Assembly: GCA_903888625.1 (NCBI GenBank)
Contig: CAISUD010000041.1
Location: forward strand, 1-47,700
DNA length: 47,700 nucleotides
Direction: 5' to 3'
From: an uncultured bacterium
GTDB taxonomy: Bacteria > Patescibacteriota > Minisyncoccia > Phycocordibacterales > UBA9973
A program made the translations under genes and the position numbers. Below are positions 2,040-31,187 of the stretch, piece by piece; the first letter of the stretch is position 1; each line of letters begins with the position of its first letter. The notes beneath the pieces were generated by a model. The model did not search any database, was not told the origin of the DNA, and saw only the letters and a list, made by a program, of their open reading frames with translations.

Positions 2040-2405
2040 TTATACTTTGATTAAGCTCAACAGCCTATCCATTACTTGTTGGTCAACAACATATTTATCA
2101 TCTCCAAATAAACTTGATGGAGCTTCATTTGCTGGCCCAATAAATGGGATAATGTGTTGGAAAAGATTAAGATGGACTTGTGCAATCCATTGGTTAGACC
2201 TGTAATACCAATGGTCTATTGGAATGCCATCTTGTATCATTTGGACAACAACAGGGTTAGTGTCCGTCTTGTAACGCTCCTTGAAAACTCTTTCTGCCAC
2301 TTCAATGCAGGATTCTTTAATTGGAATTAGTTTATAGTTTTCCATTTGTCCTATATATATATTGGCATTTGGGTCTCCTTCTCTCATCAGTTGAAAATTA
2401 TTCAT
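2040..2405 (-). CDS. Hypothetical protein
   Basis: 121-aa ORF followed by two hairpins (gggaatag...ctattccc at about 2003-2035, and ccctca...tgaggg). No recognisable motif. Confidence 0.5.
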   Translation of the reverse strand: MNNFQLMREGDPNANIYIGQMENYKLIPIKESCIEVAERVFKERYKTDTNPVVVQMIQDGIPIDHWYYRSNQWIAQVHLNLFQHIIPFIGPANEAPSSLFGDDKYVVDQQVMDRLLSLIKV

Positions 2406-2759
2406 AGTAATTTTTTTAGTTAAACTTTATTTTTGAACTTTCTCAATCACCATAAAGTAACTAAAAGAGTCCAAAAATTAAAGTTGAGATAATATGTCAA
2501 AGACCATATATTTACCTACAATCTACCATTGAAGAATAGAAAAAGCAATGGTTCGTATCCTATTCTGGGTACAGAAAATAACCCATAAAAATGGTGTTTA
2601 AAATTTGCTCCCCGAACGTGAGATTATTATAACCATCTTCTCGGATTATGAGTATATGAATTCGATGTATTCTAAACTTTTGTATATTAAGGAGTTGTGT
2701 AGGGTTTAAGGTTTTTTTATCAAGACAATGCAAAAATGGGAAGTTATTTGAATACATAG

Positions 2760-3602
2760 TTATTTTTTATCAGAATTTGCTAAGTCACCAAACACTTTAG
2801 CTATTTCTCTTTCATCTTCTTTCTCTTCTCTAATATTCTTTAAAAGAAGAACAAGGGCAGTTCTAATTTTTTCTGCTTTTGTTAAACATTCCTCATCAGT
2901 CCAATTATGTAAACCAATGCTTAATGAGTCGTGAAGCAAACCAAGAGTGTTTTGTCCACCACTTTTTAATTTTTCTGGTATTTTGTCTTTTATAATTTCA
3001 ATTTTTTTTGTGGTATTCTTTTCTAATCTTGCTTTTTCAGCCAATTTTTTAATATCACTATCACCACTTTTATAAATTTCATCCAAAATATAATCAATTT
3101 TATCTTCCACGAGTTGCCTATAATAGGCATATGCACCAATTCCAAAAGAAGAACTTTCACAACGAAAACCTTTTCTATAAATTTCAAAATCTTTTTTATC
3201 TAAAAGCTTTATTATTTCAGTTTCATTTAAAATTTGTAATTCAGGATATTGCCCTATCTTCATTATTTTTAATTTTAACTCAACACCATTATAATTTAAT
3301 TGAACAATAATAAAATACTGTTGTTTTATTGAACTGCAACCCTTACATTCATATTCAAGTTGTTTAATAATATTTATTATAAAATGGTCTTTACTCTTAA
3401 ATCTATCAAAAAATCTTTTGTTTTCAATTTCATTAAAGGTAGTTCTGTCTTCACATTTATTACAATAAAGAGATAAAGCTGGCAATCCTTCCTTTTGATC
3501 AAAAAACGCACCAATTGCATAATTTGGTTCGATATAAACTATTCCATTTATATTTTCCCATTTATAAAGTGGAACTTTTTCTAAAAAATCTTTTAAATTC
3601 AT
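2760..3602 (-). CDS. Hypothetical protein with CxxC...CxxC zinc-ribbon and a DUF4145-like helical C-terminus
   Basis: 280-aa ORF. Cys pairs are CNKC and CKGC. The C-terminal GLLHDSLSIGLH segment resembles the conserved DUF4145 helix. It is divergent from the LexA-Dcm gene. Confidence 0.5.
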   Translation of the reverse strand: MNLKDFLEKVPLYKWENINGIVYIEPNYAIGAFFDQKEGLPALSLYCNKCEDRTTFNEIENKRFFDRFKSKDHFIINIIKQLEYECKGCSSIKQQYFIIVQLNYNGVELKLKIMKIGQYPELQILNETEIIKLLDKKDFEIYRKGFRCESSSFGIGAYAYYRQLVEDKIDYILDEIYKSGDSDIKKLAEKARLEKNTTKKIEIIKDKIPEKLKSGGQNTLGLLHDSLSIGLHNWTDEECLTKAEKIRTALVLLLKNIREEKEDEREIAKVFGDLANSDKK

Positions 3603-3639
3603 AACTTGTTATTTACAATCATTTTAAATTTAATAAAAG

Positions 3640-3683
3640 TGTGGATAACCTGCTTTGATTTTCGGTATCTGTTCGGTTATAAT
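3640..3683 (+). promoter_or_regulatory. Promoter P1 of the LexA-Dcm gene with candidate operator repeats
   Basis: TGTGGATAAC at 3640-3649, -35 TTGATT at 3655-3660, a 17-nt spacer, and -10 TATAAT at 3678-3683. The spacer holds two direct repeats, TTCGGTAT and TTCGGTTAT, 11 bp apart. The ATG is at 3715. Confidence 0.55.
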
Positions 3684-3714
3684 ATAAGTGTAGCACAAAT
3701 GAGATTTTAAAGCA

Positions 3715-5292
3715 ATGAAAACTATAACAAAAAAACAAAAACAAGTTCTTGATTTTATAAACACCTATATATTGGAAAACGGTATCTCTCCCACTATTGA
3801 AGAAATACGAAAAAAGCTAAAACTCAAAGCGGTTTCCACTATTCATGAACATATAAATTCTTTAAAAGAAAAAGGATATCTTTCAAAAAGTGAAAATTCA
3901 GCCAGAAGTATTACTTTAGAGAAAGAAATAAAAACAGTTTTAGAAATTCCGATTATGGGGAAAATTAAAGCCGGTGCTCCGATTGAAGCAATTGAAGACT
4001 TTCAGGGAACAATTGCTGTTTCTAATCCTAATATAAAGAATTCAAAAGAATATTATGCCTTGCGTGTTTCTGGCGATAGTATGATAGAAGAAGGTATTTT
4101 TGATGGAGATATTGTAATTATAAAAAAACAATCTGTCGCAGAAAACGGGCAGACAGTAGTAGCTATCATTGACGACAACCAAGCTACTCTAAAAAAATTA
4201 TACAAAGAAAATAACAAATTCAGACTTCAACCTAGAAATCCTAATATGAAACCTCTTTTTAGAACTGATGTAGAAATCAGGGGTGTTGTGATTCAGATCA
4301 TTAGGAATGTATCAAACGAACCAGAAAAAAAGGTTGAGAAAAAAACAAAGCTCCAATTTAGAACTATTGATTTATTTGCAGGAATTGGTGGAATAAGAAT
4401 TGGTTTTGAAAGAGTTGGGTTTAAAACAGTCTTTGCTAACGATTTTGATAAGCAATGTGGAATAACTTATGATTTGAATTTTCCAACATCAAAATTGGTC
4501 ATAGAAGATATTAGAAAAATTGGAATTGATGATTTGCCAAAATTTGATTTTTTGCTTGGCGGTTTCCCTTGTCAGGCTTTTTCTATCGCAGGCTATCAGC
4601 AAGGATTTAAGGACAAGAAAGACAGAGGTAATTTATTTTTTGATATTGCAAAAATAATCGATGTTAGAAAACCAACAGGATTTTTACTTGAAAATGTAAA
4701 AAACTTAAAAAGTCATGATGAGGGTAAAACTTTTAAAGTTATTGAAGAAACATTAAAAAATCTTGGCTATTATGTCAAAATAAAAGTTTTAAATAGTATG
4801 GAGTATGGAAATATTCCACAAAACAGAGAACGTGTTTATATCGTAGGCTTTAAAGATAAAGATTATTATGAAAAATTTGAATTTCCTAATCCGATCAAGC
4901 TTACTAAAAAAATTACTGATTTATTGGAAAAAAATGTGTCTGAAAAATATTATTACAATGGAAAACCATTATATGAAAGATTAAAGAATTTTATAAAAGA
5001 AGAAGGAAAAGTCTATCAGTGGCGTAGACAATATGTTAGAGAAAATAAAAGTGGGGTCTGCCCTACGCTTACAGCAAACATGGGAACTGGAGGACATAAT
5101 GTGCCAATTATTAAAGATAAGAAAGGTATTAGAAAATTAACTCCATTAGAGTGTGCTAGAATTCAAGGCTTTCCAAATGATTTTAAATTCCCTAAAATAG
5201 CTGACTCTGCTTTATACAAGCAAATTGGAAATTCTGTTAGTGTTCCAGTTATTGAAGCTGTTGCAAGACAAATGATGAAAGCAATAGAATAA
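3715..5292 (+). CDS. LexA (wHTH + S24 autopeptidase) fused to a DNA (cytosine-5)-methyltransferase
   Basis: 525 aa in a single frame. The LexA part shows HTH STIHEHINSLKEKGYL, Ala-Gly site KAGAP, Ser nucleophile SGDSM and Lys ATLKKL. The Dcm part shows motifs DLFAGIGG (I), GFPCQAFS (IV), ENVKNL (VI), QNRERVY (VIII) and GNSVSVPV (X). Confidence 0.9.
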   Translation: MKTITKKQKQVLDFINTYILENGISPTIEEIRKKLKLKAVSTIHEHINSLKEKGYLSKSENSARSITLEKEIKTVLEIPIMGKIKAGAPIEAIEDFQGTIAVSNPNIKNSKEYYALRVSGDSMIEEGIFDGDIVIIKKQSVAENGQTVVAIIDDNQATLKKLYKENNKFRLQPRNPNMKPLFRTDVEIRGVVIQIIRNVSNEPEKKVEKKTKLQFRTIDLFAGIGGIRIGFERVGFKTVFANDFDKQCGITYDLNFPTSKLVIEDIRKIGIDDLPKFDFLLGGFPCQAFSIAGYQQGFKDKKDRGNLFFDIAKIIDVRKPTGFLLENVKNLKSHDEGKTFKVIEETLKNLGYYVKIKVLNSMEYGNIPQNRERVYIVGFKDKDYYEKFEFPNPIKLTKKITDLLEKNVSEKYYYNGKPLYERLKNFIKEEGKVYQWRRQYVRENKSGVCPTLTANMGTGGHNVPIIKDKKGIRKLTPLECARIQGFPNDFKFPKIADSALYKQIGNSVSVPVIEAVARQMMKAIE

Positions 5293-5295
5293 TTT

Positions 5296-6198
5296 TTAAA
5301 AAATAAAATCTACTTTAATTTTTTTAATTTGTTTAATTTGTTTTTCTAAATAATCTTTTCCCATATTTTCGTCACGGAGATTTACATGTGATCCATTAAA
5401 GGATGTGCTAATTTTAACAGCCATATCATTTTCTATCCAAAACTTAGCTCTTAATCTTAATTCCAAACGTTTTTTTGATTTGTATATTTTAGTATTACCG
5501 TATTCGTTCGCTATAAAATTATCTAAAAATACAGATTTACCTCTAACGGTAGTTCTTTGTTTATTTACACTAACTTTATTTAATTCATTTATATTTAAAA
5601 CAGCACCTGCAAAATAAAAATTTGTTCCATTTCCTTGTATACTCGGTCTAAGTATAAAAAAATAATATATTTTTTTTATTGGATAAGTTCTTTTTAAAAT
5701 TTCATACTTATCTTTATAAAGTTTTATCCACTTATCTTTAATTTCATCATAGCTATGTGAGGCAAAAAGACTATCTAAATCAATACCTGCATCTGCAAAG
5801 TTTTGACCAAGTGAGGCTTCTCCACTATCCCCATTTAAAACATTACCTGAAGCATTAACTTTCACATTAAGCATTTTTATATCAGCTCCCCAATTTTCAC
5901 GTTCATTATATATATCTATTGGATAAGAACCAGCACCAACAGGCTTGACATCTAAAGCTTGTGTAAACCATTGCTCTATATGTTCCTTTGGTATCTGAAT
6001 TGGCAATGACCTTTGTTCTTTTTTTGATTCGGGTTGAGCAAATAAAGATTTTATTATAAAGTATTTAATTATGTTAACCGCTTTGTCATCTAAAAAATTA
6101 AGTAATTCCTTGTGTTTTAGTGGATTAATTACAAAACTTTTCATACTATTTAATTTGTCCTTCTTTTTTATCATATTTATTCTATGAGTATGACACAA
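5296..6198 (-). CDS. Putative Type II restriction endonuclease partner of the Dcm fusion
   Basis: 300-aa ORF convergent with the MTase, with 3 nt between the stops. PIDIY...GADIKM is a candidate PD-(D/E)xK motif. The call rests mainly on context. Confidence 0.5.
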   Translation of the reverse strand: MCHTHRINMIKKKDKLNSMKSFVINPLKHKELLNFLDDKAVNIIKYFIIKSLFAQPESKKEQRSLPIQIPKEHIEQWFTQALDVKPVGAGSYPIDIYNERENWGADIKMLNVKVNASGNVLNGDSGEASLGQNFADAGIDLDSLFASHSYDEIKDKWIKLYKDKYEILKRTYPIKKIYYFFILRPSIQGNGTNFYFAGAVLNINELNKVSVNKQRTTVRGKSVFLDNFIANEYGNTKIYKSKKRLELRLRAKFWIENDMAVKISTSFNGSHVNLRDENMGKDYLEKQIKQIKKIKVDFIF

Positions 6199-6633
6199 AA
6201 AGAAATCTGAAGCAATTTGATTACTTAATTTAAAAATTTAAAATAGAATAATTTTAAAAATGATAAATATACCAAACTTTTATCTAAAAAAGCTTATTAT
6301 TTCAATATACAATAGACAGACTATTTACATCAATTTTCAATTGTTTTCTTAATATATTTTTCTCGCAAAAAGTCTTTAAAAATGGTATAATTTAGCTAAT
6401 TGGTAATAACTATTGCCAATAATTCTGGTTTTAGGGAGCAGAACTAAAACTAGACCTACGGGATTAAAATCTGCTTAGCAAGACAAATGAAAGTAAAAAA
6501 AATACCACTGTCAAAGCAGAGGTATTGATTCCGACCTTTAGAATTTAAAAATGTACAACAATTATAATTCTTAATATGTTTAAAATCAATACTTGACTGT
6601 AAAAAATTTTTATGGGGATTTTGTCTTAAATAT

Positions 6634-6759
6634 GTGTCAAAATCTAACGATAAAATTACCGTAAACAGATCCGCAATAACAGGAAAATTTGTTTCAGAAA
6701 AATATGCTGATAATCATCCGAAAACAACAGAAAAAGAAAATTATAGGAGAAAGAAATAG
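6634..6759 (+). CDS. Small hypothetical protein (41 aa, GTG start)
   Basis: Translates to VSKSNDKITVNRSAITGKFVSEKYADNHPKTTEKENYRRKK. A strong terminator hairpin follows immediately. There is no clear RBS and the ORF is below the ORF-track cutoff. Confidence 0.3.
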   Translation: MSKSNDKITVNRSAITGKFVSEKYADNHPKTTEKENYRRKK

Positions 6760-6762
6760 TTA

Positions 6763-6795
6763 ATCAAAAACCCTTACTCTGCGAGGGTTTTTGAT
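6763..6795 (+). terminator. Rho-independent terminator
   Basis: atcaaaaaccct / agggtttttgat form a 12-bp stem with a 9-nt loop and a T-rich tail. Confidence 0.6.
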
Positions 6796-7065
6796 TCTTA
6801 GCCATAATACTCAGCGATTGTTTGCGAATATACTGCGATTTCCACAGCGTAAACACCGAACCATACTGAAATGTGTGAAAACGCAAAGTACTCGCAAGAC
6901 AAATGATATTAACAATGTTTAAATCGCTTTAACTTCCCTATTAACAATATCAATCTGAAAATCAATATAATCCTTCATACAAAAAAACAAAACTTGATAT
7001 CAGGGTGTTTTGAAGGTTTTAACAGGTTATTTAAAATCTTGTGTTTTCTTGTGTTTTTTATATAT

Positions 7066-7460
7066 AAAAATTGTAACCTTTTTGTAACCTTTAGCGATAG
7101 TAAAACCTTATAGTTTTTTTATGTTTTAAATCTGCCGAAATCTTATCTTTTCTTACCTTCTTTAATAGCAACATCTTAATGATTTCTCAATGCTCTACCT
7201 TAAATTATCTTAAGTTTTATATCTACCGAAATCTTATCCTTTCTTAATAGTTTACCTTAATGCTATACCCTAAGTTTTAGTATTCTAAAAATTATAGGTT
7301 TTAATACTACGAAATTGTAACCTTTTTGTAACTTTTATGTGTATTAAAACCTTAACCTTTTCTTAACCTTTGGCTAATTAAATTTTTAGGTTTTTTTAGG
7401 TTTTAGTATTTTAAAAATTCTAAGTTTTTCTAAGTTTTGATTATATAAATACCTTTAGTT
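7066..7460. repeat. Iteron-like direct-repeat cluster (putative replication origin or partition site of the element)
   Basis: TTGTAACCTTT occurs in tandem at 7071-7092. The 21-mer aaattgtaacctttttgtaac is repeated at 7068-7088 and 7312-7332. ctRccgaaatcttatcYtttctta occurs at 7132 and 7222. tta/aggttttagtattYtaaaaatt occurs at about 7270 and 7398. No ORF is present. Confidence 0.5.
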
Positions 7461-7498
7461 TTATTTAGTTTTAGTTATTTAAAAAATCTCAAAATCAA

Positions 7499-7936
7499 TT
7501 AGTTATTCATATATTGGTCTCGAAGTAAATTAAACTGGTCACAACTAAAATTTGATAGTGATTTATTAGTAGATCTATAATCTAAACAATTTTGAACATC
7601 ATTACCTGTAAATTTATCAAAAATCACAGAACCTGTTTCTCCGTCATAAATGTAATCGTATCCTGCATAAACCTCACCACCATGAGATGATGTTATCTCG
7701 ACAAAACATTTTTTTAAACTAATATTATAGTGTGTAAAAGAATGAAAAATTGTATCAGAACCATATGTATTTTTTTCTTCAATTGTTTTCCCCCAATTAT
7801 GACAATTGTCTTGAAGTTGCATTAAATCCTTTTGCTTAGCTAAAGAACTTAGTTTTGAATTTTGCCCAACAAAATAGGCACCTGCTATTGCAACGATTCC
7901 AACAACTATAATTGTAATCAATGTATATTTTTTCAT
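7499..7936 (-). CDS. Membrane-anchored or secreted hypothetical protein
   Basis: 145 aa with an N-terminal hydrophobic segment (LITIIVVGIVAIAGAYFV) and several Cys. Confidence 0.6.
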   Translation of the reverse strand: MKKYTLITIIVVGIVAIAGAYFVGQNSKLSSLAKQKDLMQLQDNCHNWGKTIEEKNTYGSDTIFHSFTHYNISLKKCFVEITSSHGGEVYAGYDYIYDGETGSVIFDKFTGNDVQNCLDYRSTNKSLSNFSCDQFNLLRDQYMNN

Positions 7937-7940
7937 AAAA

Positions 7941-8276
7941 TTATTGACTTAAAAAAGTAATTGAATAACCAGCCAACGTAATGATACAAATGACTAGCAT
8001 GTATATATTTAATAAAGTGAGAAAAATCATCATAATCTCAGCTAATCTTTTTTCTGTTTTATGACTTTTAATAATAGATATTATTCCAAAAATAATTGCT
8101 GTAATAATAAATCCTAAAATAATAAGCTCAACAATATCAAAACCTATAATTTTAAAGCTGGGTATCCATTTACTATAAAATGATTGATACGCATCTGATC
8201 TAATAAATACACAAATTAGTAATGGTAACCCTGTAAAAAGAACTGCTAGTTTTAAAAATTTATTGATTTTTTTCAT
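7941..8276 (-). CDS. Small multi-pass membrane protein
   Basis: 111 aa with three or four hydrophobic spans. There is a 4-nt gap to the downstream ORF. Confidence 0.6.
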   Translation of the reverse strand: MKKINKFLKLAVLFTGLPLLICVFIRSDAYQSFYSKWIPSFKIIGFDIVELIILGFIITAIIFGIISIIKSHKTEKRLAEIMMIFLTLLNIYMLVICIITLAGYSITFLSQ

Positions 8277-8291
8277 AATTTTTTAGTTAAA

Positions 8292-9290
8292 TTAATAATG
8301 AGGACAACTACCAGTCACCCGACAACCTGAATTTAGTTGCATTTGATAATATTGTTGTTGCTGTTGTTTCAACTGTTGCTCTTCTTTAAGTTGCTCGGCT
8401 TGCCAATATTGCTGTAGCTGTGCACTTTGCTGATCCCGTTTTTGTTGTTCTATTGCTCTAGTGTTGGCGTCAATAGAATTTTGTAATTGCTGAAGTTTAT
8501 AAGTTGTTTGATCTTGCTGAAATAATTGTTGTTGAGTGTTGAGATAATTATTATATACACCTTGTTGCTTCTGCTGGAGTGTTTGTGCTAAAGAATCCAT
8601 TTTTAATCTAAAAGATAAACTGGAATTATAATAATTCAACATAGATCCTGAAGTACATGCCTTTGCTGTATCTGATAAGGAATTTTGTTTTTCCAAAAAA
8701 TTACATAAAAATGTCAGTCTGGTAATTTGTTCCGAAGTTACGGGCGGAATTGCCATACAAGAAGTTTTGTTAGAATTCCACTCATATCCAGTTTTACAAC
8801 TACAATTTAATCCTTCTTTATCGTTTTTAGTGCCACTCCAATTACTATTTATTCCGTAGCTATCTTGGCAGATTTGATCGCTAGTTTTTATTGGTACAAC
8901 CACACAAGAAGTGTGACTGGTATTCCACATAAAGTAAACCTGACAATCACAAATTGGTCCACCCTGGGAGTTTAATTTTTTAGTCCATATACTACCCACA
9001 CCATAGTCATTAGCACAAATTTGATTATTGTTTTTTGCTGAAGTTGTCTTTGTTGTATTGCTATCAGTAATAGAAATACTTTTTTGAGAAATAATAGAAT
9101 TAGTATTTTGATGTAAATATGTATTATTTAAATCTTGCAATTCTTGCGGTGATAAATTTTGAGTATTAATTGGTTGCACTGTTGTTGGTACAGTTTTTGA
9201 AAACCATGTAAGTGGATTCCACCAACTAGCAAAAACAATTGAAGGAATAATAAATACTGCTAGAAACAAAATTAGAAGATATTTTTTCAT
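8292..9290 (-). CDS. Secreted Cys-rich repeat protein with a Gln-rich coiled-coil tail
   Basis: 332 aa. It has a signal-like N-terminus, three repeats of the type C..DYG..S.W....N..G...C.C, and a C-terminal Q-rich low-complexity region. Confidence 0.65.
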   Translation of the reverse strand: MKKYLLILFLAVFIIPSIVFASWWNPLTWFSKTVPTTVQPINTQNLSPQELQDLNNTYLHQNTNSIISQKSISITDSNTTKTTSAKNNNQICANDYGVGSIWTKKLNSQGGPICDCQVYFMWNTSHTSCVVVPIKTSDQICQDSYGINSNWSGTKNDKEGLNCSCKTGYEWNSNKTSCMAIPPVTSEQITRLTFLCNFLEKQNSLSDTAKACTSGSMLNYYNSSLSFRLKMDSLAQTLQQKQQGVYNNYLNTQQQLFQQDQTTYKLQQLQNSIDANTRAIEQQKRDQQSAQLQQYWQAEQLKEEQQLKQQQQQYYQMQLNSGCRVTGSCPHY

Positions 9291-9304
9291 AAATTATTTT
9301 TTGC

Positions 9305-9478
9305 GTTTTATTTATAAACCTAGGGAGTAGAACGCAAAAAGCCTACCACATAGGTTAGTAGCTTTCGCTACTCACATTGGTTTCCCAATATGGCGATCAA
9401 GCGACCCTATATGATAGGTTCTTTATGCTTGATCGACTTATTTCACCGTGCCTTTGTTTCTAAAGGTTTAGGCTACTT
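9305..9478 (-). ncRNA. Candidate structured leader or ncRNA upstream of 8292..9290
   Basis: On the minus strand, closing stem AGCCTA/TAGGCT encloses hairpins GTAGC-GAAA-GCTAC and ATTGG-GAAA-CCAAT (both GNRA loops), the 9-bp stem CGATCAAGC/GCTTGATCG, and CCTAT-CATA-TAGG. A T-run and a second hairpin, TTGCGTT/AACGCAA, follow. The class is unknown. Confidence 0.35.
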
Positions 9479-9560
9479 CTTATTTAATTGTACTTTAATT
9501 ATATATACTTATTTGTTATTATACAACCATAGGTCAGTTTTTAATTAATTAAAAAATTAT

Positions 9561-10025
9561 ATGACAAAAAGTAAAAAAACAATAAAATTATTAGATCCAT
9601 TAATCTTTGATGAAAATGGGATGATGAATCCTGATTACGAACTTTCAACTTGGGGAGTCGGTAGAGGTATACTTCGTAGAAAAAAAGATTTAAATAATAC
9701 CCAAGAGAGTAATAAAATTATTTTAATAATAAACACTGATAAAAAAACAATCGCAAGGAAAACTCAAAATGAAACCTTGGAATATCAATTTCGAAAATCT
9801 GACGGTAAAAATAAACGCTTTGAATATTTGATTATGATAACTCAAAGTAATTCTAAGGTCGGGGCTAATAGATTGGGTAATACGACTCTTCAAAACATAA
9901 GTTCCGAACTTAAAAATATTAATGAAATAATAATAAAAAAATTAAAATTAACAAAAGATTTAATTGTAAATTACAATAACTCTGGATATGAAATAAATAA
10001 AGTTTATCAAATTGATTTAGTCTAA
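9561..10025 (+). CDS. Hypothetical protein
   Basis: 154-aa ORF followed by a terminator. No recognisable motif. Confidence 0.55.
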   Translation: MTKSKKTIKLLDPLIFDENGMMNPDYELSTWGVGRGILRRKKDLNNTQESNKIILIINTDKKTIARKTQNETLEYQFRKSDGKNKRFEYLIMITQSNSKVGANRLGNTTLQNISSELKNINEIIIKKLKLTKDLIVNYNNSGYEINKVYQIDLV

Positions 10026-10053
10026 TTAAGGCTAACTACTTGTTAATTTGAAC

Positions 10054-10085
10054 AAAAATACTCTTTAAAATATGAGTATTTTTTA
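10054..10085 (+). terminator. Rho-independent terminator
   Basis: aaaaatactc / gagtattttt form a 10-bp stem followed by a T-run. Confidence 0.6.
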
Positions 10086-10144
10086 TATTGCCTTTATATA
10101 AACACAACTATCTTAAAGTAATTTTTTATGAAAAACTAGATACT

Positions 10145-10294
10145 ATGGAAAAAGTATCCGTAGCAACAGAAGGAGAGAAAAGCAAAATCATTGACGCTGC
10201 AGCGCAAATTTTTGCCGACCTCTTTATCAGTTATTTGGACCAAGTCGAATTATCCAAGAAAGAGGATATTAATTTTCCTAGTGAAAAATTATAA
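10145..10294 (+). CDS. Small hypothetical protein (49 aa)
   Basis: This is the ATG-initiated version of track ORF 10088..10294 (MEKVSVATEGEK...). It sits directly upstream of the replication gene. Confidence 0.35.
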   Translation: MEKVSVATEGEKSKIIDAAAQIFADLFISYLDQVELSKKEDINFPSEKL

Positions 10295-10313
10295 ATTAAT
10301 CATTGAAATTAAA

Positions 10314-11861
10314 ATGAATATAAAACAAACATTATTAGAAAATGGAATTGAAATAAAAGACATAGGCGATTATTTAGCAACCTACTGTCCATTCTGCAAT
10401 AAAGTGTCCTCCGGTCATTCAATAGCAACATTTAATATTGACCCTATTACAGGAAACGGACACTGCTCTGCCTGTAAAGAAAACTTTGAGTGGCAAGAAA
10501 TTTCGGATAAGCTTGAACTTGAAGCAGTCAAAACTATTGAAAAGAAAGAGAAAACAAAAAAGGTCAAAAAATATGAAGAGGAAGATGAGAATGAAGAATT
10601 TCTAAAATCATTGGAAGAAGCTGATCCAATCATAGATGTGTCAAAATTCAAACCGTTATCTAATAAAGAATTAGTAGAAATTCTAAGTATAACAATCAAA
10701 CATGACAACGAAAACAAACTCGCCACTTTCTTTGGTATGCTTTCCGCCTATGCCGGAGACGCACAATTAAACATAAGTTATAATGCACCATCTTCAACGG
10801 GTAAAAGTTTTATACCATTAGAACTTTCAAAACTTTTTCCAAAAAAAGACTTAATAAAACTAGGGGGGTGTTCGCCCAAATCTTTTTTTCACGAACAGGG
10901 AGAATTCAACAAAGAAAAAAATGAACGAATGGTAGATCTTTCATCCAAAATACTTATATTCCTTGATATGCCACACAACCAACTACTTACAGGATTGAGA
11001 CCTCTTTTTTCCCACGACCAAAAAGAAATTCATTTTAAAATAGCTGACCCTCACGAAAAAGGAGGAATCAAAACAAAAACCGTTATCTTAAGAGGATTCC
11101 CCGCTGTTGTCTTTTGTACTGCGGGGTTAAAAATAAATGACCAAGAAGCTACAAGGTTTCTCCTATTAAGTCCAAGTATGGAACAGGAAAAAATCAAAGA
11201 TGGGGTATCTCTAGCATTAAAAAAAGAAATGAATATTACAGCTTATGAAAATTCATTGAAAGAAAACGAAGGTCGCAACTTACTTATTGAAAGAATACAA
11301 GCAATTAAAAATGAAAACATTAAAGATATCAGGCTTTGCTCGGAGGAATTAATACGAGAACGCTTTTTTAAAGATAAAGAATTTTTACAGCCAAGATATC
11401 AAAGAGACATCAAGCGTATAACTTCAATGATAAAATCAATTGCTATTCTTAATTTATGGTGGAGAGATAAAAATGGATCAACAATCACTGCCAACGAACA
11501 AGACGTAAATGACGCTTTTGATTTATGGGATAAATTATGCACAAGCCAAACACTTAATCTACCACCTTTTGTTCTCCAGCTTTTTGAACTTGTAATTAAA
11601 CCGCTATGGCAAAAAAAAGAAGGGACAGGAGAAGATATTGGTATTAGTAGAAAAGAAATTTCTCAGCAACATAACGAAATTTACCACCGATTGCTTGATA
11701 CTGCTCAGTTTAGTAATTCAATTCTTCCAATGTTGGAAAGTGCAGGATTACTTCTCCAAGAACGTGATCCAAAACAAAAACAAAGAATGCTGTTTTACCC
11801 TGTAGTGGAAAATACTAATGGTAATGCAGAAAAAGTGGTAGACAAATTAGAGGACTTTTAA
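10314..11861 (+). CDS. Replication-type protein: N-terminal CHC2-like zinc finger plus P-loop NTPase
   Basis: Start chosen at MNIKQTL (M42 of the track ORF), because the upstream part overlaps the preceding ORF. The zinc finger is CPFCN...H...CSAC. Walker A-like is APSSTGKSF and Walker B-like is ILIFLDM. Confidence 0.65.
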   Translation: MNIKQTLLENGIEIKDIGDYLATYCPFCNKVSSGHSIATFNIDPITGNGHCSACKENFEWQEISDKLELEAVKTIEKKEKTKKVKKYEEEDENEEFLKSLEEADPIIDVSKFKPLSNKELVEILSITIKHDNENKLATFFGMLSAYAGDAQLNISYNAPSSTGKSFIPLELSKLFPKKDLIKLGGCSPKSFFHEQGEFNKEKNERMVDLSSKILIFLDMPHNQLLTGLRPLFSHDQKEIHFKIADPHEKGGIKTKTVILRGFPAVVFCTAGLKINDQEATRFLLLSPSMEQEKIKDGVSLALKKEMNITAYENSLKENEGRNLLIERIQAIKNENIKDIRLCSEELIRERFFKDKEFLQPRYQRDIKRITSMIKSIAILNLWWRDKNGSTITANEQDVNDAFDLWDKLCTSQTLNLPPFVLQLFELVIKPLWQKKEGTGEDIGISRKEISQQHNEIYHRLLDTAQFSNSILPMLESAGLLLQERDPKQKQRMLFYPVVENTNGNAEKVVDKLEDF

Positions 11862-11988
11862 TTAAAAGCACCACGGGGTAAATTAATTTAAATTATTAAT
11901 TAAAACTAAAATACTAAAGGTGGGCATAACTCCGGTTGTCCTTTCATTCATAAGTTCCTATTATTAATTAATAACTAATTAAAAAAAT

Positions 11989-13557
11989 ATGCAAGAAAAT
12001 CAAAATAAAAAAGCAATAATTTACTGCAGAGTTTCAACTTCTGACCAAGCCGATAATGGACAATCAATTGAAGCTCAAGAAATTATTTGTCGTAGAGAGG
12101 CAGAAAAAGACGGATATGAAGTTGTTGGAGTAATAAAAGACGAAGGCAAAAGCGGTAGTACTTTAAAAAGACAAGGTATTCAGGAATTAATAAGAAAAGT
12201 AATGGCAAAAGAAGTAGACATCGTCGTAGTAATTCATTCTGACAGAATCGCGAGGAATACAATTGATCACATAACATTACGAAATTTATTCAAAGAAAAA
12301 GGAGTAATTCTTAAATGCTTAAATAAACCAATCGTAGGAAATACCGCCACTGATATTGTAATTGATAACATTATGGCTTCAGTAAATGAAATGCAATGCT
12401 TAATTACTGGAGAAAAAGTTATCGCTACTTTAAACGAGAAGGCAAAAGCAGGATATTTCCCTTCCTATCCCCCGCTCGGGTATAAAAATGTAAAAAATCC
12501 AAATCCGATGGATGGTAGATTATCAGAAAAAATTGTGGTGCAAGACGAATTAGTTGCACCTCTACTAAAGAAAGCTTTTGAACTTTATGTAACTGGAAAT
12601 TATAATGTCTTTGATGTTAGCGACATTTTATTTGAAAGTGGATTAAGAACTAGAAAAGGTTGTAAATTATCAGAAAGTAGACTTTATGAACTTTTAAGAA
12701 ATCCTTTTTACAAAGGAGAATTACATTGGGGAAGTATTCACATTACGGACCCAAAACTTGTAAAACATAAACCAATTATTGATGAATATACTTTTAATGC
12801 AGTTCAAAAAATAATGGACGGGAAAAATCATCACTCTTGCCGTAAAAGGAAATACGTATGGCTTTTAAATGGATTTTTGCGTTGTTATAAACATTCTTGT
12901 CGCTATACTGCTGAATGGCATTTAAAAAAGAAGATTGCTTATTACCATTGCACCAACAAAAGTGGTTGTGGAAAATATTCAGAACAAAACAAGTTAGAAG
13001 AAATGATTGCCAATAAATTTAAAACATTGGAATTCAATAAAGAATTTATTGATAAAGTAATTGAAAAAGCTAAAAATATTTTTTATGAAAGAAGAAAAAT
13101 ATACGACAATAAAAAACAAACATTAATTAATCAAAGAACTGCTTTTGAAACAAAAAGAAAAGTTGCCGAAGATGAATTACTTGAAAAAACTATCACTAGA
13201 GAAGCTTTTACTAGAATTAACGATGGACTTATTAAAGAACTCGAAAATATTGATAGTCGTTTAATAGATTTAGAAAAAGACAGGAATGTAAATGTTGATA
13301 TTGCTAAAGAAATAATTAGCCTGACTGACAACATTTATGACACCTACAAAAAAGCTTCACCAAAATTGAAAAAACAATATTTAGGATTTTTTTGGGAAAG
13401 ATTTGAGATTGCTGATGGACTTATAATTAAATCCGTTCCCTCTATCCTATTTGACGAACTTTTGAAGTTAGAACAGGTGTACCAAAAAACCGAAAATGCT
13501 TATATACCTAGTGTTTATAGTGAGGTTATAAATTCTTCTAACTGGCTCCGGGGGTAG
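11989..13557 (+). CDS. Large serine recombinase / integrase
   Basis: 522 aa. It has a resolvase-type catalytic N-terminus (IIYCRVSTSDQ, DRIARN), a recombinase domain, a Cys-rich zinc ribbon (CYKHSC...CTNKSGC) and a C-terminal coiled-coil. The last 15 nt overlap the tRNA-Asn 3' end. Confidence 0.9.
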   Translation: MQENQNKKAIIYCRVSTSDQADNGQSIEAQEIICRREAEKDGYEVVGVIKDEGKSGSTLKRQGIQELIRKVMAKEVDIVVVIHSDRIARNTIDHITLRNLFKEKGVILKCLNKPIVGNTATDIVIDNIMASVNEMQCLITGEKVIATLNEKAKAGYFPSYPPLGYKNVKNPNPMDGRLSEKIVVQDELVAPLLKKAFELYVTGNYNVFDVSDILFESGLRTRKGCKLSESRLYELLRNPFYKGELHWGSIHITDPKLVKHKPIIDEYTFNAVQKIMDGKNHHSCRKRKYVWLLNGFLRCYKHSCRYTAEWHLKKKIAYYHCTNKSGCGKYSEQNKLEEMIANKFKTLEFNKEFIDKVIEKAKNIFYERRKIYDNKKQTLINQRTAFETKRKVAEDELLEKTITREAFTRINDGLIKELENIDSRLIDLEKDRNVNVDIAKEIISLTDNIYDTYKKASPKLKKQYLGFFWERFEIADGLIIKSVPSILFDELLKLEQVYQKTENAYIPSVYSEVINSSNWLRG

Positions 13558-13560
13558 GGA
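13546..13560. repeat. Proximal att-like direct repeat inside tRNA-Asn exon 2
   Basis: Exact copy of 1660-1674. Confidence 0.55.
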
Positions 13561-13583
13561 TCGAACCTACGACCAATCGCTTA

Positions 13584-13915
13584 CATGTAATCTCCTATTA
13601 CTAGGGGCATGGACTATATCATCTCCATATTCATAAATAATTTTTATGAACTTAGGAGCAAGGCGCTTCGCGCTCTGAATTTTTAAATCAGAGAACTACT
13701 CCATAAATGGATAGTCTCTACACCTTCCTTCGACAAGCTCAGGATAAATCCCCAACTAATCAAAGGCTTGGCTCGGGATTGCCCTCTTCAAAGAGGGTTT
13801 CCCCGAATTCACCTTGTTTTCGATCTATTTTTCAATAGAAAGCTGCGTAATACTAAAAGTTAGTATATTTCCTTTTGTCTGGCATAAATTTATTATACCA
13901 TGGGTGGAAATGTCC
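13584..13915 (-). ncRNA. Group I self-splicing intron (IC3-like, tRNA anticodon-loop type), ORF-less
   Basis: The minus strand contains GGTGTAGAGACTATCC (R element, 13709-13724) and GATATAGTCC (S element, 13611-13620). It also contains AATTCGGGGAAACC and CCGAGCCAAGC, which match the Azoarcus/cyanobacterial tRNA intron core as I recall it. The 5' exon ends in U and the intron ends in G. Confidence 0.8.
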
Positions 13916-14198
13916 ACAGGCGACCGCTCTACCGCTGAGCTACCCCGGAATTTGTACTCCAAAGATAGCTCAAACGGAACCGCTGGTCACTAGTATTTTT
14001 CTGCTGAAAAATCTTGCGACCCCGACTCGGCACCTTCGTGCCTCCGTCTTTGAAATGCTTTAATTACGCATTTCAACTACCCCGGAATATATTTAATTAA
14101 GATAAAGAACAATGTGTTGTGCCCAAAGAAGCTCTCCTTCGGTGCTACCGTCTCCACCTAAACCGAAAATTTAAAGCAGTTTAAATTTACGATTTATG

Positions 14199-14760: not shown

Positions 14761-15729
14761 TTATTTTAAAAATTGAGTTACTAATCCTACCATTTGATCT
14801 TTCTTTTCTGGATTACTTTCTGCAATTAAAAGAGTAAGTGCAGTAAGTGCATTTGGATTGATATTTTTACCACCTTTAATATTTGTTCTTCGCAAAAACC
14901 AAATAAAAGCAAAAGCACCAGAACGTTTATTGCCATCGACAAAAGGATGATTTTTAACCATAAAATACAAAAGGTGCGCTGCTTTTTCTTCGAGCGTTTT
15001 ATAAACATCTTGTCCGCCAAAAGATTGCATCACATTTCCAATAATTCCTTCTATACTTCCAGCATTCCTTTCTGTGGCAAAAATATCTGAAGCCTCCCCT
15101 TTTTTGAGAAGTTCGGAACGTAAATTTTTTATTGCTTCGTTTAATTCGATTGCGGAAAACTTAACAGATTTTTTAGTAAAACCTATAGAAATTAATTTTT
15201 CTTTATCATAAGCATCGATAGACATCCAAGTACTAGAAAATTCTTTTATCAATTCAAGAATTGTTTTTGGATCAAGCAATACATGTTCTGGTAATAATGA
15301 CTGAACACTAGCCACAGCTTGCATAAAAGATTCATAATTTTTAGCAATTTGTTTTTTGTTTATGGTATAGCCTTTTGTAATATGTTCTTTAAGTGTCTTG
15401 GTTGCCCATTTTCTGAATTCTGTTGCAGTTTTCGAATTAACCCTGTAACCAACAGAAATAATTGCGTCTAAACTATAAAACTGAGTATTGTAAGTTTTTC
15501 CATCGTTCGCAGTATTCCGGAAATTCCGGATAACTGAATTTTTATCTAACTCTTTAGTTTTAAAAATATTAACAAAGTGTTCACTAATAGTTCTAATATT
15601 GACTCCAAAAACTTCAGCAATTTGAGCCTGTGTTGCCCAAATAGTCTCATGCTTAGAATCCCCTCGAAGTTCGATAGCTCCATTTTTTGCCTGATAAATT
15701 ACTAAATTATTTTTTATATTTTTCTTCAT
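14761..15729 (-). CDS. RhuM-like N-terminal domain fused to a Fic/DOC domain
   Basis: 322 aa. The RhuM-type segment is IWATQAQIAEVFGV...FYSLDAIISVGYRVNSKTATEFRKWAT. The C-terminal Fic motif is HPFVDGNKRSG. Confidence 0.8.
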   Translation of the reverse strand: MKKNIKNNLVIYQAKNGAIELRGDSKHETIWATQAQIAEVFGVNIRTISEHFVNIFKTKELDKNSVIRNFRNTANDGKTYNTQFYSLDAIISVGYRVNSKTATEFRKWATKTLKEHITKGYTINKKQIAKNYESFMQAVASVQSLLPEHVLLDPKTILELIKEFSSTWMSIDAYDKEKLISIGFTKKSVKFSAIELNEAIKNLRSELLKKGEASDIFATERNAGSIEGIIGNVMQSFGGQDVYKTLEEKAAHLLYFMVKNHPFVDGNKRSGAFAFIWFLRRTNIKGGKNINPNALTALTLLIAESNPEKKDQMVGLVTQFLK

Positions 15730-15788: not shown

Positions 15789-16046
15789 TTACTTTGATTT
15801 TTTTGTAAGGGTTATAAGTTTTAACTTCTCAACCCTTTTCAATTTTTTAATTCTGGATTCTTCCTTTGAAGCATTTGATCTGTTTTTAAATTTTTTAGAA
15901 TAAATCAATTCCACCGGCCGTCGAGCCCGTGTATACCTAGCCCCAAGCTTACTGCCATTATGCTCCCCCACCCGTCGTTTCAAATCTGTCGTAATACCAG
16001 TATACAAACTCCAATCCCTGCATTTTAAAATATATAGGTGGTACAT
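15789..16046 (-). CDS. GIY-YIG nuclease superfamily protein (UPF0213/YhbQ-like)
   Basis: Start moved to MYHLYILKC, because the track N-terminal extension overlaps a terminator hairpin. Supporting motifs are YHLYIL...LYTGIT...R..EH and a conserved E in KEESRIKKL. Confidence 0.7.
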   Translation of the reverse strand: MYHLYILKCRDWSLYTGITTDLKRRVGEHNGSKLGARYTRARRPVELIYSKKFKNRSNASKEESRIKKLKRVEKLKLITLTKKSK

Positions 16047-16057
16047 AAAAATGTGTA

Positions 16058-16091
16058 CAAAAAAAAGAAAACCCCTTATGATTAAGGGGTT
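16058..16091 (-). terminator. Rho-independent terminator
   Basis: On the minus strand AACCCCTTA-ATC-TAAGGGGTT is followed by TTCTTTTTTTT. Confidence 0.5.
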
Positions 16092-16267
16092 TAAGAAATT
16101 TTCAGACAAGAATCATTCTTAAATTGATCATATAATTCTTTTTGTTCTTTATTAGCTTCTTTTATTGCCGATTTTATAACCTTTTTTTGTTGGCTAATAG
16201 GCCTTGAAAAAAACTCTGCGAAGTCTGACTTTTCTTTATTTTTACTAAAAAATCTAGATATTTTCAT
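16091..16267 (-). CDS. Small hypothetical protein (58 aa)
   Basis: MKISRFFSKNKEKSDFAEFFSRPISQQKKVIKSAIKEANKEQKELYDQFKNDSCLKIS. It is below the track cutoff and ends in the terminator above. Confidence 0.3.
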   Translation of the reverse strand: MKISRFFSKNKEKSDFAEFFSRPISQQKKVIKSAIKEANKEQKELYDQFKNDSCLKIS

Positions 16268-17717: not shown

Positions 17718-19154
17718 ATGATAAATACACAATTAACAAAAAAACAGGCTGAGGTCATTCAATATGTAAAAAAATTTCAATCAAGGAAAAATTATTCCCC
17801 TTCCTTAAGTGATATTGCAAATCATTTTAATGTTTCAATCCCTACAATTCATGAACATGTAGAATATTTAAAAAAGAAAGGTTATTTAGAAAAACAAAAA
17901 GGTAAAAAACGTTCTATTCAACCAATCAAAAATAAAGATTTACTAATTATCCCAATCTTGGGAAAAATCGCTGCTGGTCAACCGATAGAAGCAATAGAAA
18001 TTCCAGAAGGATTTGTAACTCTTACTAAAGAGGAAGCAAAACCATCAGAGAAATATTATGCACTTCGTGCTATTGGAAACAGCATGATAGAAGATGGGGT
18101 TTTTGACGGAGATACTGTAGTTATTAGAGAACAGAAAACAGCAGATAATGGTCAAATGGTGGTTGCCATTATTGACGATAATCAAGCTACCTTGAAACGA
18201 ATATATTATGAAAAAAACAAAATACGTTTACAGCCAGCTAACCAAACATTACTACCTTTTTTTAGAACAGAAGTTGAGATTAGAGGTATTGTAGAAAAAA
18301 TAATTAGAAATCCAAACAATGAAATTGAAGAAATACGCAAAAAAGAAAATCCAATAGTTAAACATCTCACAAAAGATTCAGAAAGTATCTTTATAAATAA
18401 TGAATATAAAGTAAATAAAATTTATAACATTGATTGCCTTGAACTAACAAAAAAAATAAAAGACGATTCAATAGATCTTATTTTTGCAGATCCACCCTAT
18501 AATTTAAGCGGGAGTAATTTTAAAATGAAATTTACAAAATCAGGCGGTAGTGATTTAAATACCAATAAAGGAAAATGGGATCATTATAGTGATATGGAAT
18601 TTGAAGAATTTACAAAAAAATGGTTGTCTGAATGTTTTAGAATTCTTAAAAAAAATGGTTCAATTTGGGTTGCGGGCTCTTACCATAACATATATTTAAC
18701 GGGTTATTTAATGAAAAAAATTGGTTTTGAAATTTTAAATGAAGTTTTATGGCATAAGTCTGATGCTACCCCTAATTTATCTTGCACAAGATTTGTTGCT
18801 GACCATGAAAATTTTATTTGGGCACGAAAAGGCAAAGGAAATATATTTAATTATGCTATAATGAAAAAGTTAAATGGTGGAAAACAAATGCGATCACTTT
18901 GGACAAAAGGTAAAACAACAGGCGGAAAAAGAATACATCCAACCCAAAAGCCAGAATGGCTTTTGGAAAGAATCATAACGGCAACATCTAATAAAAATAG
19001 TATTGTATTTGACCCATTTCTTGGTTCAGGAACAACTGCAGTCGTTGCAAAAAAATATGAAAGACAATATTTAGGTGCTGAATTAGATCAAGATTATTAT
19101 AAGAAAGCAATTGAAAGAATAAATCAAACAATAATATGCAAAAACATTATTTAG
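17718..19154 (+). CDS. LexA (wHTH + S24 autopeptidase) fused to a beta-class N6-adenine/N4-cytosine DNA methyltransferase
   Basis: 478 aa in a single frame. The LexA part shows PTIHEHVEYLKKKGYL, AAGQP, IGNSM and ATLKRIY. The MTase part has motif IV FADPPYNL before motif I FDPFLGSGTT, which is the beta order. Confidence 0.9.
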   Translation: MINTQLTKKQAEVIQYVKKFQSRKNYSPSLSDIANHFNVSIPTIHEHVEYLKKKGYLEKQKGKKRSIQPIKNKDLLIIPILGKIAAGQPIEAIEIPEGFVTLTKEEAKPSEKYYALRAIGNSMIEDGVFDGDTVVIREQKTADNGQMVVAIIDDNQATLKRIYYEKNKIRLQPANQTLLPFFRTEVEIRGIVEKIIRNPNNEIEEIRKKENPIVKHLTKDSESIFINNEYKVNKIYNIDCLELTKKIKDDSIDLIFADPPYNLSGSNFKMKFTKSGGSDLNTNKGKWDHYSDMEFEEFTKKWLSECFRILKKNGSIWVAGSYHNIYLTGYLMKKIGFEILNEVLWHKSDATPNLSCTRFVADHENFIWARKGKGNIFNYAIMKKLNGGKQMRSLWTKGKTTGGKRIHPTQKPEWLLERIITATSNKNSIVFDPFLGSGTTAVVAKKYERQYLGAELDQDYYKKAIERINQTIICKNII

Positions 19155-31172: not shown

Positions 31173-31187
31173 AAAAAATATGAACTT

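Follow-up and report, generated by a model that had tools for sequence, protein, structure and literature searches.

The question raised by this locus is what interrupts the anticodon of a tRNA-Asn(GUU) gene, and whether the interruption can still be removed. The gene, from an uncultured lake bacterium, lies in a window of 47.7 kb, a term used here for the whole stretch of DNA that was analyzed. ARAGORN run without intron search missed the gene, but with intron search it called tRNA-Asn(gtt) with an intron of 332 nt. The gene is composed as follows (slashes in sequence strings mark splice sites throughout):

13949-13543, minus strand: whole split tRNA-Asn(GUU) gene (ARAGORN with intron search)
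13916-13949, minus strand: 5' exon of tRNA-Asn(GUU), 34 nt, ending in CCUGU, with U35 as U-1 of the intron (ARAGORN with intron option; equal to the 5' part of the uninterrupted genes L133, L174 and L179)
13584-13915, minus strand: group I intron, 332 nt, with G(+1) at 13915 and the terminal omega-G at 13584 (Rfam RF00028, ARAGORN bounds, intron-skipping DNA contigs)
13543-13583, minus strand: 3' exon of tRNA-Asn, 41 nt, UAAGCGAU...CCCCGGA-G-CCA, with the CCA encoded and G as discriminator (ARAGORN; comparison with uninterrupted genes)

The Rfam model Intron_gpI (RF00028) scored 75.7 bits at positions 13866-13591 of the minus strand (gathering score 50; E=1.5e-17), in a match that spanned model positions 1-253 of 253. 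The first-pass annotation had proposed that a group I intron of 332 nt interrupts the anticodon of tRNA-Asn(GUU); ARAGORN and RF00028 confirmed this, on the minus strand and with exactly the coordinates proposed, and the strings it had quoted (GTAGAGACTA, GATATAGTCC, AATTCGGGGAAACC, CCGAGCCAAGC and GAAGGTGTAGAGACTA) were all found on that strand. The overall reading, with a probability of about 90%, is a group I intron in tRNA-Asn with a P1 guided by CGCAG and a remnant of an HNH gene in the P1 loop (L1), and we infer that the window copy splices.

The insertion point lies between the anticodon bases U35 and U36. Cutting after U35 and after G13584, the only cut that yields the 7-nt loop CUGUUAA, leaves exons that ARAGORN folds into a normal 75-nt cloverleaf with anticodon GUU and discriminator G, as expected of tRNA-Asn. 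The ligated exons were identical at 75/75 positions to the uninterrupted tRNA-Asn genes of the metagenome contigs L133, L174 and L179, and at 73/73 positions to those of L126 and L129; these relatives with uninterrupted genes also have the same element upstream of tRNA-Asn as the window. This upstream element occupies 13957-14087, and co-transcription of it is seen in at least one related contig. The predicted exon junction is thereby verified independently, by comparison of gene sequences, and the earlier proposal of splicing after U and after the terminal G is upheld. Additionally, DNA contigs from the same lake contained a joint that skips exactly 13584-13915, that is, intron-less alleles in the same samples. 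No Rfam family was found for the spacer upstream of the tRNA or for its homologues; the nearest matches of the tRNA, the intron and the spacer were in MAGs of Saccharibacteria and other Patescibacteria.

Since the source is a metagenome scaffold, a tRNA gene fused in assembly to an unrelated intron fragment was considered, and this explanation has next to no probability. The same sequence was present at 100% identity in three independent assemblies (L121-L123), and so is not an assembly artefact; contigs from separate runs matched the window without differences across the boundary of 5' exon and intron, as far as 13944 or 13951, those runs also covered the 3' junction region, and the junctions recur in 45 homologues from other genomes.

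The element that would define the 5' splice site was sought within the intron:

13843-13847, minus strand: internal guide sequence CGCAG, pairing with exon CUGU (13919-13916) and intron G+1 (13915) to form P1 (conserved position, covariation, MFE fold)

In this P1 (CUGU/G with CGCAG), a wobble pair between U35 and G13846 stands at the 5' splice site. The GCAG was found 33-36 nt 5' of GGTGAATTC, the P3/J3-4 boundary, in nearly all of the 45 Asn introns (33 nt in the window copy), and the first intron nucleotide can pair with the nucleotide preceding GCAG in 43 of the 45 (A-U in 20, G-C in 14, C-G in 5 and G-U in 4). An independent MFE fold also has P1 closed, around a three-way junction (z=-2.6). 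P1 of the window intron consists of 5 pairs only. Fixed position and covariation support the earlier suggestion that the CGCAG some 70 nt inside the intron is the guide sequence, which gives an extended P1 loop. For P10, only UUA/UAA was available, with 3 pairs and a one-base bulge as judged by eye, and this pairing is not claimed.

On the pattern of other group I introns, the exon CUGU and intron G+1 of the folded pre-tRNA would pair with the guide CGCAG to form P1, in which the U35-G wobble would mark the 5' splice site. P7 would bind an external guanosine, which would attack after U35; the terminal G (13584) would next take the place of that guanosine, and the exons would be joined into a normal tRNA-Asn.

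The catalytic core on which these steps would depend was modeled from the Rfam alignment and from 44 homologues:

13824-13839, minus strand: P2 hairpin UCUAUU-GAAA-AAUAGA with a GNRA loop (compensatory changes at 6/6 pairs in 44 homologues; 98.9% of cells canonical)
13722-13816, minus strand: 5' strand of P3 (13816-13810) and the P4-P5-P6-P6a domain (13806-13722) (Rfam alignment, covariation)
13712-13716, minus strand: 5' strand of P7, GACUA, pairing with UAGUC at 13616-13612; guanosine-binding helix (invariant in 44/44 homologues)
13711-13700, minus strand: P7.1, UCCA-UUUA-UGGA (compensatory changes at 4/4 pairs; 88% of cells canonical)
13693-13673, minus strand: P7.2, CUCUGA...UCAGAG (compensatory changes at 6/6 pairs; 29 of 44 sequences gapped at most pairs)
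13612-13665, minus strand: 3' strand of P3, CGCCUUG (13665-13659), P8 (13658-13623), J8/7 and the 3' strand of P7 (13616-13612) (Rfam alignment, covariation)
13584-13610, minus strand: P9.0, P9 (CCUA-GUAA-UAGG, 13605-13594) and the terminal G, 13584 (P9.0 with compensatory changes at 3/3 pairs)

All helices of the P3-P8 and P4-P6 domains, together with P7, are present in the window copy, where every modeled helix forms a run of standard pairs from the copy's own sequence. The two strands of P7 are the R and S elements in the Rfam alignment. Across the family, 96.8% of cells hold canonical pairs, compared with 34-46% when the 3' partners are slid. Compensatory changes were also observed at 3/7 pairs of P3, at 7/7 pairs of P6a (both in 44 homologues) and at 3/4 pairs of P8, and the P9 loops are of the GNRA type (GUAA, GAAA, GCAA) in most of the homologues listed. 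P4, P6, P7 and one half of P3 show no variation, in part because the search pattern held P4 and P6 fixed and so forced some of the invariance, and these helices consequently offer no covariation evidence. The support for P7.2 is less firm than that for P7.1 because of the many gaps in the homologue alignment. The core helices are therefore intact, and P2, P3, P6a, P7.1, P8 and P9.0 are backed by covariation.

The assignment of this core to a subgroup as "Azoarcus-type IC3" stood in one part and failed in another. The strings of J3/4-P4, P6 and J6/7-P7 agree with the Azoarcus row in the published alignment, so that the P3-P6 and J6/7 core was rightly recognized. The P7.1 and P7.2 hairpins, by contrast, are absent from the four classical IC3 introns and do not belong to the classic Azoarcus architecture; subgroups are distinguished partly by such P7.1/P7.2 elements (PMC3984707). 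Most relatives show hairpins at the P7.1/P7.2 position in the sequences listed, and P7.1 is usually accompanied by P7.2.

The origin of the long P1 loop was traced by homology:

13848-13914, minus strand: extended P1 loop (L1), 67 nt, remnant of an HNH homing-endonuclease gene (homology to L107, ORFs of relatives)

L1 contains TGGTATAAT at 13900-13892 of the minus strand and an ORF of 10 codons, ATG CCA GAC AAA AGG AAA TAT ACT AAC TTT TAG (13885-13853, minus strand). Comparison with the 548-nt intron L107 gave 84% identity between nt 1-54 of the window intron and nt 1-55 of L107, and 87% between nt 65-153 of the window intron and nt 320-404 of L107; relative to L107, about 264 nt of the ORF are deleted in the alignment, which leaves the 10 codons and a stop. 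In L107, L069 and L019, where L1 bears the HNH gene, both ends of that L1 are homologous to the remnant. Relatives of 519-582 nt hold an intact ORF of about 105 aa in the P1 loop, with a Pfam match to HNH, which runs through the guide sequence and stops inside P2 (...GITQLSIER*), and many family members of 205-285 nt have no ORF and a minimal L1. The window copy has no intact homing-endonuclease gene. By this homology, the 67 nt between the P1 strands are the leftover of an HNH gene and not a part of the ribozyme, which accounts for the length of the loop; with its endonuclease gene deleted, the window copy has lost the means to spread by homing while keeping the ribozyme intact.

The passage of the relatives' HNH ORF through the guide sequence and into P2 is a link between protein and ribozyme, and some group I introns rely on maturases or host proteins (review PMC3984707). 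Splicing in the cell might thus depend on a protein helper, either a host factor or, originally, the HNH protein acting as a maturase, in which case loss of the ORF would lower splicing efficiency. This is quite improbable: many members of 205-285 nt do without an ORF, which means that the ribozyme lineage can last with no protein of its own, and HNH proteins are not known to serve as group I maturases. Also improbable is a bolder proposal, in which the P7.1/P7.2 tRNA-Asn introns would be a structurally distinct ribozyme subclass that joins an IC3-like core to IA-type peripheral hairpins, reading of the HNH gene through the guide and P2 would couple endonuclease translation to ribozyme folding, and, if a reduced genome had a single tRNA-Asn gene, all decoding of Asn would hang on GTP-dependent splicing, which might then be a regulatory checkpoint and not a neutral parasite.

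A further alternative for the window copy is a decaying relic that has lost splicing, perhaps because the 67-nt remnant disturbs P1, with another tRNA-Asn gene decoding Asn. P1 is short and its strands are parted by the long loop, and in a variant contig of run X2, from the same lake, a 94-nt deletion (13821-13914; joint 13820 to 13915) has removed both guide sequence and P2, so dead copies may exist. Four metatranscriptome runs contained only related intron cores of 85-95% identity, and these four together with two further "RNA?" runs yielded related sequences only; a single exon-exon joint, in one of the four, is not distinguishable from intron-less genes of other taxa. Nevertheless, a relic is very unlikely. 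The modeled helices are standard-pair runs in this copy and are maintained throughout the family, and its exons are 100% identical to uninterrupted genes of the working type. The same loop carries an ORF of about 300 nt in relatives, so a long L1 is tolerated, and the remnant folds into hairpins of its own that leave P1 closed. Moreover, neither ARAGORN nor the Rfam search found a second tRNA-Asn gene within the 47.7-kb window. An intact intron that probably splices remains the preferred reading.

The first-pass annotation had taken a group I intron to be a rarity in tRNA-Asn and in CPR genomes, a view that the family distribution overturns. In a genome scan, a tRNA-Asn intron turned up in at least 45 species, about 19 of them Patescibacteria among the matches listed, and the 45 homologous introns all occupy the identical site CTGT/...G/TAA. 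The window intron has the CCTGT/...G/TAA bounds of the Asn.4Ug class, as do Pam37.Asn.4Ug and 44 genome loci. For about 12 relatives ARAGORN called "tRNA-Thr(UGU)", and this call was rejected: the cut CCTGT/...TG/TAA gives a tRNA-Asn with the conserved GCAG guide, and in L019 the intron is flanked by exactly the anticodon-arm sequences found in the window tRNA-Asn. A full-text literature search on group I introns and tRNA-Asn returned organelle papers only, and a broader search led to the preprint of Williams 2020 (bioRxiv 10.1101/2020.01.27.920355), whose seed alignment contains an Asn.4Ug intron. PMC8172020 likewise mentions group I introns that lie in tRNAs of CPR genomes. The tRNA-Asn group I intron is therefore not new: it was catalogued in 2020, is widespread and is common in such bacteria.

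The tRNA also marks the end of an integrated element:

11989-13557, plus strand: large serine recombinase gene of the integrated element (Pfam Resolvase 6.6e-31, Recombinase 2.2e-12)
13545-13559, with a second copy at 1660-1674, unstranded: 15-nt exact direct repeat GCTCCGGGGGTAGGG, the tRNA 3' end (repeat search, sequence read)

The last 15 nt of the recombinase gene overlap the 3' end of the tRNA, and the direct repeats, whose similarity reaches 32 nt at 75%, bracket an element of about 11.9 kb. Homologous recombinase genes adjoin the 3' end of the intron-containing tRNA-Asn in L071 and L120. With the gene at the tRNA and the repeat at the far boundary, the locus has the features of a tRNA-targeting integrative element, and the suggestion that this tRNA is the attachment site of a mobile element was borne out. 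A search for the empty attachment site in relatives found none, and no synteny with the flanking host genes was seen among 120 related loci.

The tRNA-Asn intron opens no new question, and the practical point of the finding is annotation. Because standard tRNA finders miss the split gene, such genomes seem to be without tRNA-Asn unless searches are intron-aware. In related organisms tRNA-Asn occurs in four states, namely intron-less, interrupted by a minimal intron, interrupted by an HNH-bearing one, and, as in the window, with the endonuclease deleted and the ribozyme intact, so that the window copy represents one stage of the homing-endonuclease life cycle.

Among known systems, Pam37 Asn.4Ug (Williams 2020) shares with the window intron the host tRNA, the site CUGU/UAA, U(-1) and the terminal G, as well as the GGGUG-AAUUC string of P3/J3-4, the AGCGCC of P3' and the presence of an additional hairpin between P7 and P3'. 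It differs in that a single long hairpin follows P7 and that it has an added P2.1, where the window intron has P7.1 and P7.2, and it does not have the endonuclease-gene remnant of the window's P1 loop; the preprint gives no splicing assay for the class. The Azoarcus tRNA-Ile(CAU) intron (IC3; row Aol6.Ile2.5Ug) has a nearly identical core (AAUUCGGxGAAACC, CCGAGCCAAGC, GAAGGUGUAGAGACUA), GNRA loops on P2 and P9 and a location in the anticodon loop. Unlike the window intron, it has its insertion point after base 36 of the anticodon, its P1 loop is short, and it has neither P7.1/P7.2 nor an ORF or ORF remnant; the rows of the four classical IC3 tRNA introns in the Williams alignment have gaps at the P7.1/P7.2 position.

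The tRNA-fMet intron of Synechocystis encodes I-Ssp6803I (Bonocora and Shub 2001, cited in PMC3984707). This bacterial group I intron of an anticodon loop, with an endonuclease that targets the anticodon region, shares its lifestyle with the long relatives of the window intron, although tRNA and insertion site differ and the window copy has lost its endonuclease. The I-Ssp6803I endonuclease family is PD-(D/E)xK and not HNH. Finally, the introns in the T-loop of tmRNA (Cbo40 and Tsu4 in the Williams alignment) occupy another host RNA and another site and are more distant in core sequence, but they carry hairpins of the P7.1/P7.2 type between P7 and P3', as the window intron does.

When the whole window was searched with ARAGORN in default mode, only tRNA-Ala was reported and tRNA-Asn was missed. 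With the intron search, a 332-nt intron was located in tRNA-Asn(gtt) on the minus strand:

13949-13916, minus strand, tRNA-Asn 5' exon
13915-13584, minus strand, group I intron, 332 nt
13583-13543, minus strand, tRNA-Asn 3' exon

The joined exons gave a regular 75-nt cloverleaf in which the loop is CUGUUAA, the discriminator is G and the CCA is encoded. Only the cut between U35 and U36 combines a U preceding the 5' site and a G preceding the 3' site with an anticodon loop of 7 nt. Intron_gpI (Rfam) was matched at full length on the minus strand (13866-13591; 75.7 bits, gathering score 50, E=1.5e-17), and all of the group I core strings quoted in the first-pass annotation were found on that strand. 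Uninterrupted tRNA-Asn genes, sharing the upstream element with the window, came from a metagenome scan run for another purpose. The predicted ligated exons were identical to three of them over 75/75 positions (L133, L174 and L179) and to two others over 73/73 (L126 and L129); in a further contig, L150, the exons were identical and a 252-nt intron occupied the same site. DNA contigs of the lake samples that contain the window carried a joint skipping exactly 13584-13915, and intron-less tRNA-Asn alleles therefore co-occur with the window allele. Three independent assemblies contained the window sequence itself at 100% identity. The tRNA call, the Rfam match and the uninterrupted homologues thus bear out the earlier reading, in observation and interpretation, of a tRNA-Asn split by a group I intron.

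The same annotation had placed the guide for P1 about 70 nt into the intron, and this proved correct. In nearly all of the 45 introns compared, a GCAG was present 33-36 nt upstream of GGTGAATTC, at the P3/J3-4 boundary (33 nt in the window intron). It pairs with the invariant exon CUGU, the G-U wobble falling at U35. Intron base +1 and the base before GCAG formed a standard pair in 43 of the 45 (A-U 20, G-C 14, C-G 5, G-U 4), the window pair being G13915-C13847. In an unconstrained minimum free energy fold of the exon end and the first 105 intron bases, P1 formed around a three-way junction (-24.1 kcal/mol, z=-2.6).

The intervening loop, L1, was explained by longer relatives. At least 13 had introns of 519-586 nt, with all of the extra sequence within L1. 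In 11 of the 13, L1 contained an ORF with CxxC...HH...CANCH motifs, about 90-165 aa long and typically about 105; its frame continues across the guide and terminates within P2 (...G-I-T-Q-L-S-I-E-R-stop). The L107 protein scored barely above the cut-off of Pfam HNH (21.6 against 21.4 bits). Bases 1-54 of the window intron were 84% identical to the start of the L107 L1, and from about base 65, just before the guide, identity to L107 bases 320-404 was 87%, about 264 nt being absent between the two blocks. The remnant consists of TGGTATAAT and, after it, a ten-codon ORF from ATG to TAG (13885-13853). On this alignment, the window intron is an endonuclease-less derivative of an HNH-bearing intron, and the puzzle of the long P1 loop is solved: it is the leftover of an endonuclease gene. 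Since other partial remnants occur in L077 and L091, the ORF was probably lost from L1 more than once.

The P1 loops of tRNA-Asn introns house an uncharacterised HNH protein family of about 105 aa (L019, L031, L050, L056, L057, L059, L060, L065, L067, L069, L107, L111 and L116). The TGGTATAAT box lies about 7 nt 5' of the endonuclease ATG (13883-13900 in the window; also L1 of L107, L069, L065, L031 and L019) and doubles as the 5' half of a hairpin, the start codon lying in the 3' half (UGGUAUAA / UUAUGCCA). A compensatory change was seen in this hairpin, GG/CC in the window copy and L107 vs GA/UC in L069 and L065. This arrangement suggests that the start codon may be masked in the full pre-tRNA and freed in a transcript from an internal promoter.

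In other environments, related intron cores were matched by metatranscriptome contigs at 85-95% identity. The 13583->13916 joint was present in one freshwater RNA contig, for which an intron-less gene is an equally possible source, and one run of doubtful RNA origin yielded a contig identical to 13900-13952, spanning the unspliced 5' junction. From the intact structure, the exon identity and the conservation of the family, we infer that the window copy would splice. Additionally, one DNA contig of sequencing run X2 (506 nt, depth 30) fuses 13820 to 13915, the L1 remnant, guide and P2 (13821-13914) being gone from a roughly 90%-identical intron variant, which after this deletion could not form P1.

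A mobile element is integrated at the same tRNA, with these features:

11989-13557, plus strand, large serine recombinase ORF (Pfam Resolvase 6.6e-31, Recombinase 2.2e-12)
3715-5292, LexA/S24-DNA methyltransferase fusion, inside the element
9357-9474, LOOT RNA (RF03000, 73.4 bits), inside the element
10191-11861, 556-aa ORF without a family hit, inside the element

It contains several unknown genes. The last 15 nt of the recombinase ORF overlap the tRNA 3' end. A 15-mer of the tRNA 3' end, GCTCCGGGGGTAGGG, recurs in the same orientation at 1660-1674, with weaker similarity over 32 nt; the direct repeats enclose about 11.9 kb (1675-13544). L071 and L120 show the same convergent arrangement, with a homologous recombinase gene directly against the 3' end of an intron-bearing tRNA-Asn gene. 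The crossover region falls within the T arm and acceptor end, which places the intron on the host side. The fusion of a LexA-like repressor/S24 peptidase to an N6/N4 DNA methyltransferase is encoded twice, within the integrated element (3715-5292) and outside it (17718-19154).

Between tRNA-Ala and tRNA-Asn, there is a conserved element, some 130 nt long (13957-14087, minus strand), with homologues in L012 and L124-L181 and a nearly invariant 60-nt core (...GCCGAGUCGGGGUCGCGAGAUUUUUCAGCAGAAAAAUACUUGUGAC), a 20-mer of which was matched exactly in 58 metagenome contigs. An Rfam search of the element and its homologues returned no family match. Every copy borders a tRNA gene, at least 13 isotypes being represented, and the stem that closes it is built from a copy of that tRNA's end and its antisense. 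The majority are located on the 3' side of the tRNA, their terminal 16-23-nt repeat beginning at C56 of the T loop; in the window copy, the first 12 nt repeat the tRNA-Asn 5' end. The element could represent either an att remnant left by an integrative element or a novel RNA. Immediately upstream of the two tRNA genes, the minus strand encodes a RhuM/Fic-domain protein (14761-15729) and, at 15789-16109, a small GIY-YIG nuclease; the Saccharibacteria contig L012 likewise has a GIY-YIG homologue close to tRNA-Asn. The G+C content of the window was 32%, and a short bacterial class A RNase P RNA (30870-31176, plus strand; 307 nt vs a 367-position model, 115 bits) fits a reduced genome.

The belief that no intron was known in tRNA-Asn or in a CPR genome was out of date. 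The tRNA settings of bacterial group I introns had been raised from 4 to 21, with 0.49 interrupted tRNA genes per genome in metagenomic assemblies of unnamed phyla, and the seed alignment of that study holds 'Pam37.Asn.4Ug', with the same tRNA, site, U(-1) and terminal G (Williams, bioRxiv 10.1101/2020.01.27.920355); group I introns were also reported in some tRNAs of circularised genomes, 34 of 36 from the CPR (Lui et al., PMC8172020). One genome per GTDB species was scanned with a pattern from P3-P4/P6, and ARAGORN was applied to each of at least 120 loci. At least 35 tRNA-Asn introns were obtained, every one at CTGT|...G|TAA. At least nine more, labelled Thr(UGU) by ARAGORN, occupy the same site: CCT|GT...G|TGTAA can be cut two ways, only the Asn cut agrees with the conserved guide, and in one of them (L019) the exon sequences beside the intron match the window tRNA-Asn. 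The total is at least 45, window copy included. About 19 of these hosts were Patescibacteria (Saccharibacteria, Paceibacterota, Zambryskibacteria, Doudnabacteria and Adlerbacteria), the others including Elusimicrobia, Aminicenantes, Planctomycetes, Deltaproteobacteria, Gammaproteobacteria and Eubacteriales. Among the loci listed, tRNA-Phe, Tyr, Gln, Leu and Arg genes also carried this family. The window intron is therefore no first case; it adds a member to a class that was already described and is widespread.

The helices were drawn on the window copy, where each is a run of standard pairs, and pairs were counted in 44 introns aligned from guide to terminal G.

Pairs with compensatory changes in each helix
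P2: 6 of 6
P3: 3 of 7
P6a: 7 of 7
P7.1: 4 of 4
P7.2: 6 of 6, with many gaps
P8: 3 of 4
P9.0: 3 of 3

Over P2, P3, P4, P6a, P7.1, P8 and P9.0, 96.8% of cells were standard pairs, dropping to 34-46% when the 3' partners were slid by 1-3 columns. P7, P6 and most of P4 did not vary among the 44; the search pattern fixed P4, the P6 5' strand and the 3' half of the P3 5' strand, so their invariance is no evidence.

Like Azoarcus-type introns, the window intron has GNRA loops, in L2 (GAAA) and L9 (GUAA). Two hairpins between P7 and P3' were read from its sequence:

13711-13700, minus strand, hairpin
13693-13673, minus strand, hairpin

Such hairpins were present in most relatives among the sequences listed, whereas the published alignment is empty between P7 and P3' for the four classical IC3 tRNA introns; its Asn.4Ug, Phe.2Ug, Lys.2Ug, Leu.1Ug and tmRNA rows do have sequence there. 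The core is thus IC3-like by sequence and the predicted architecture is not classic IC3.
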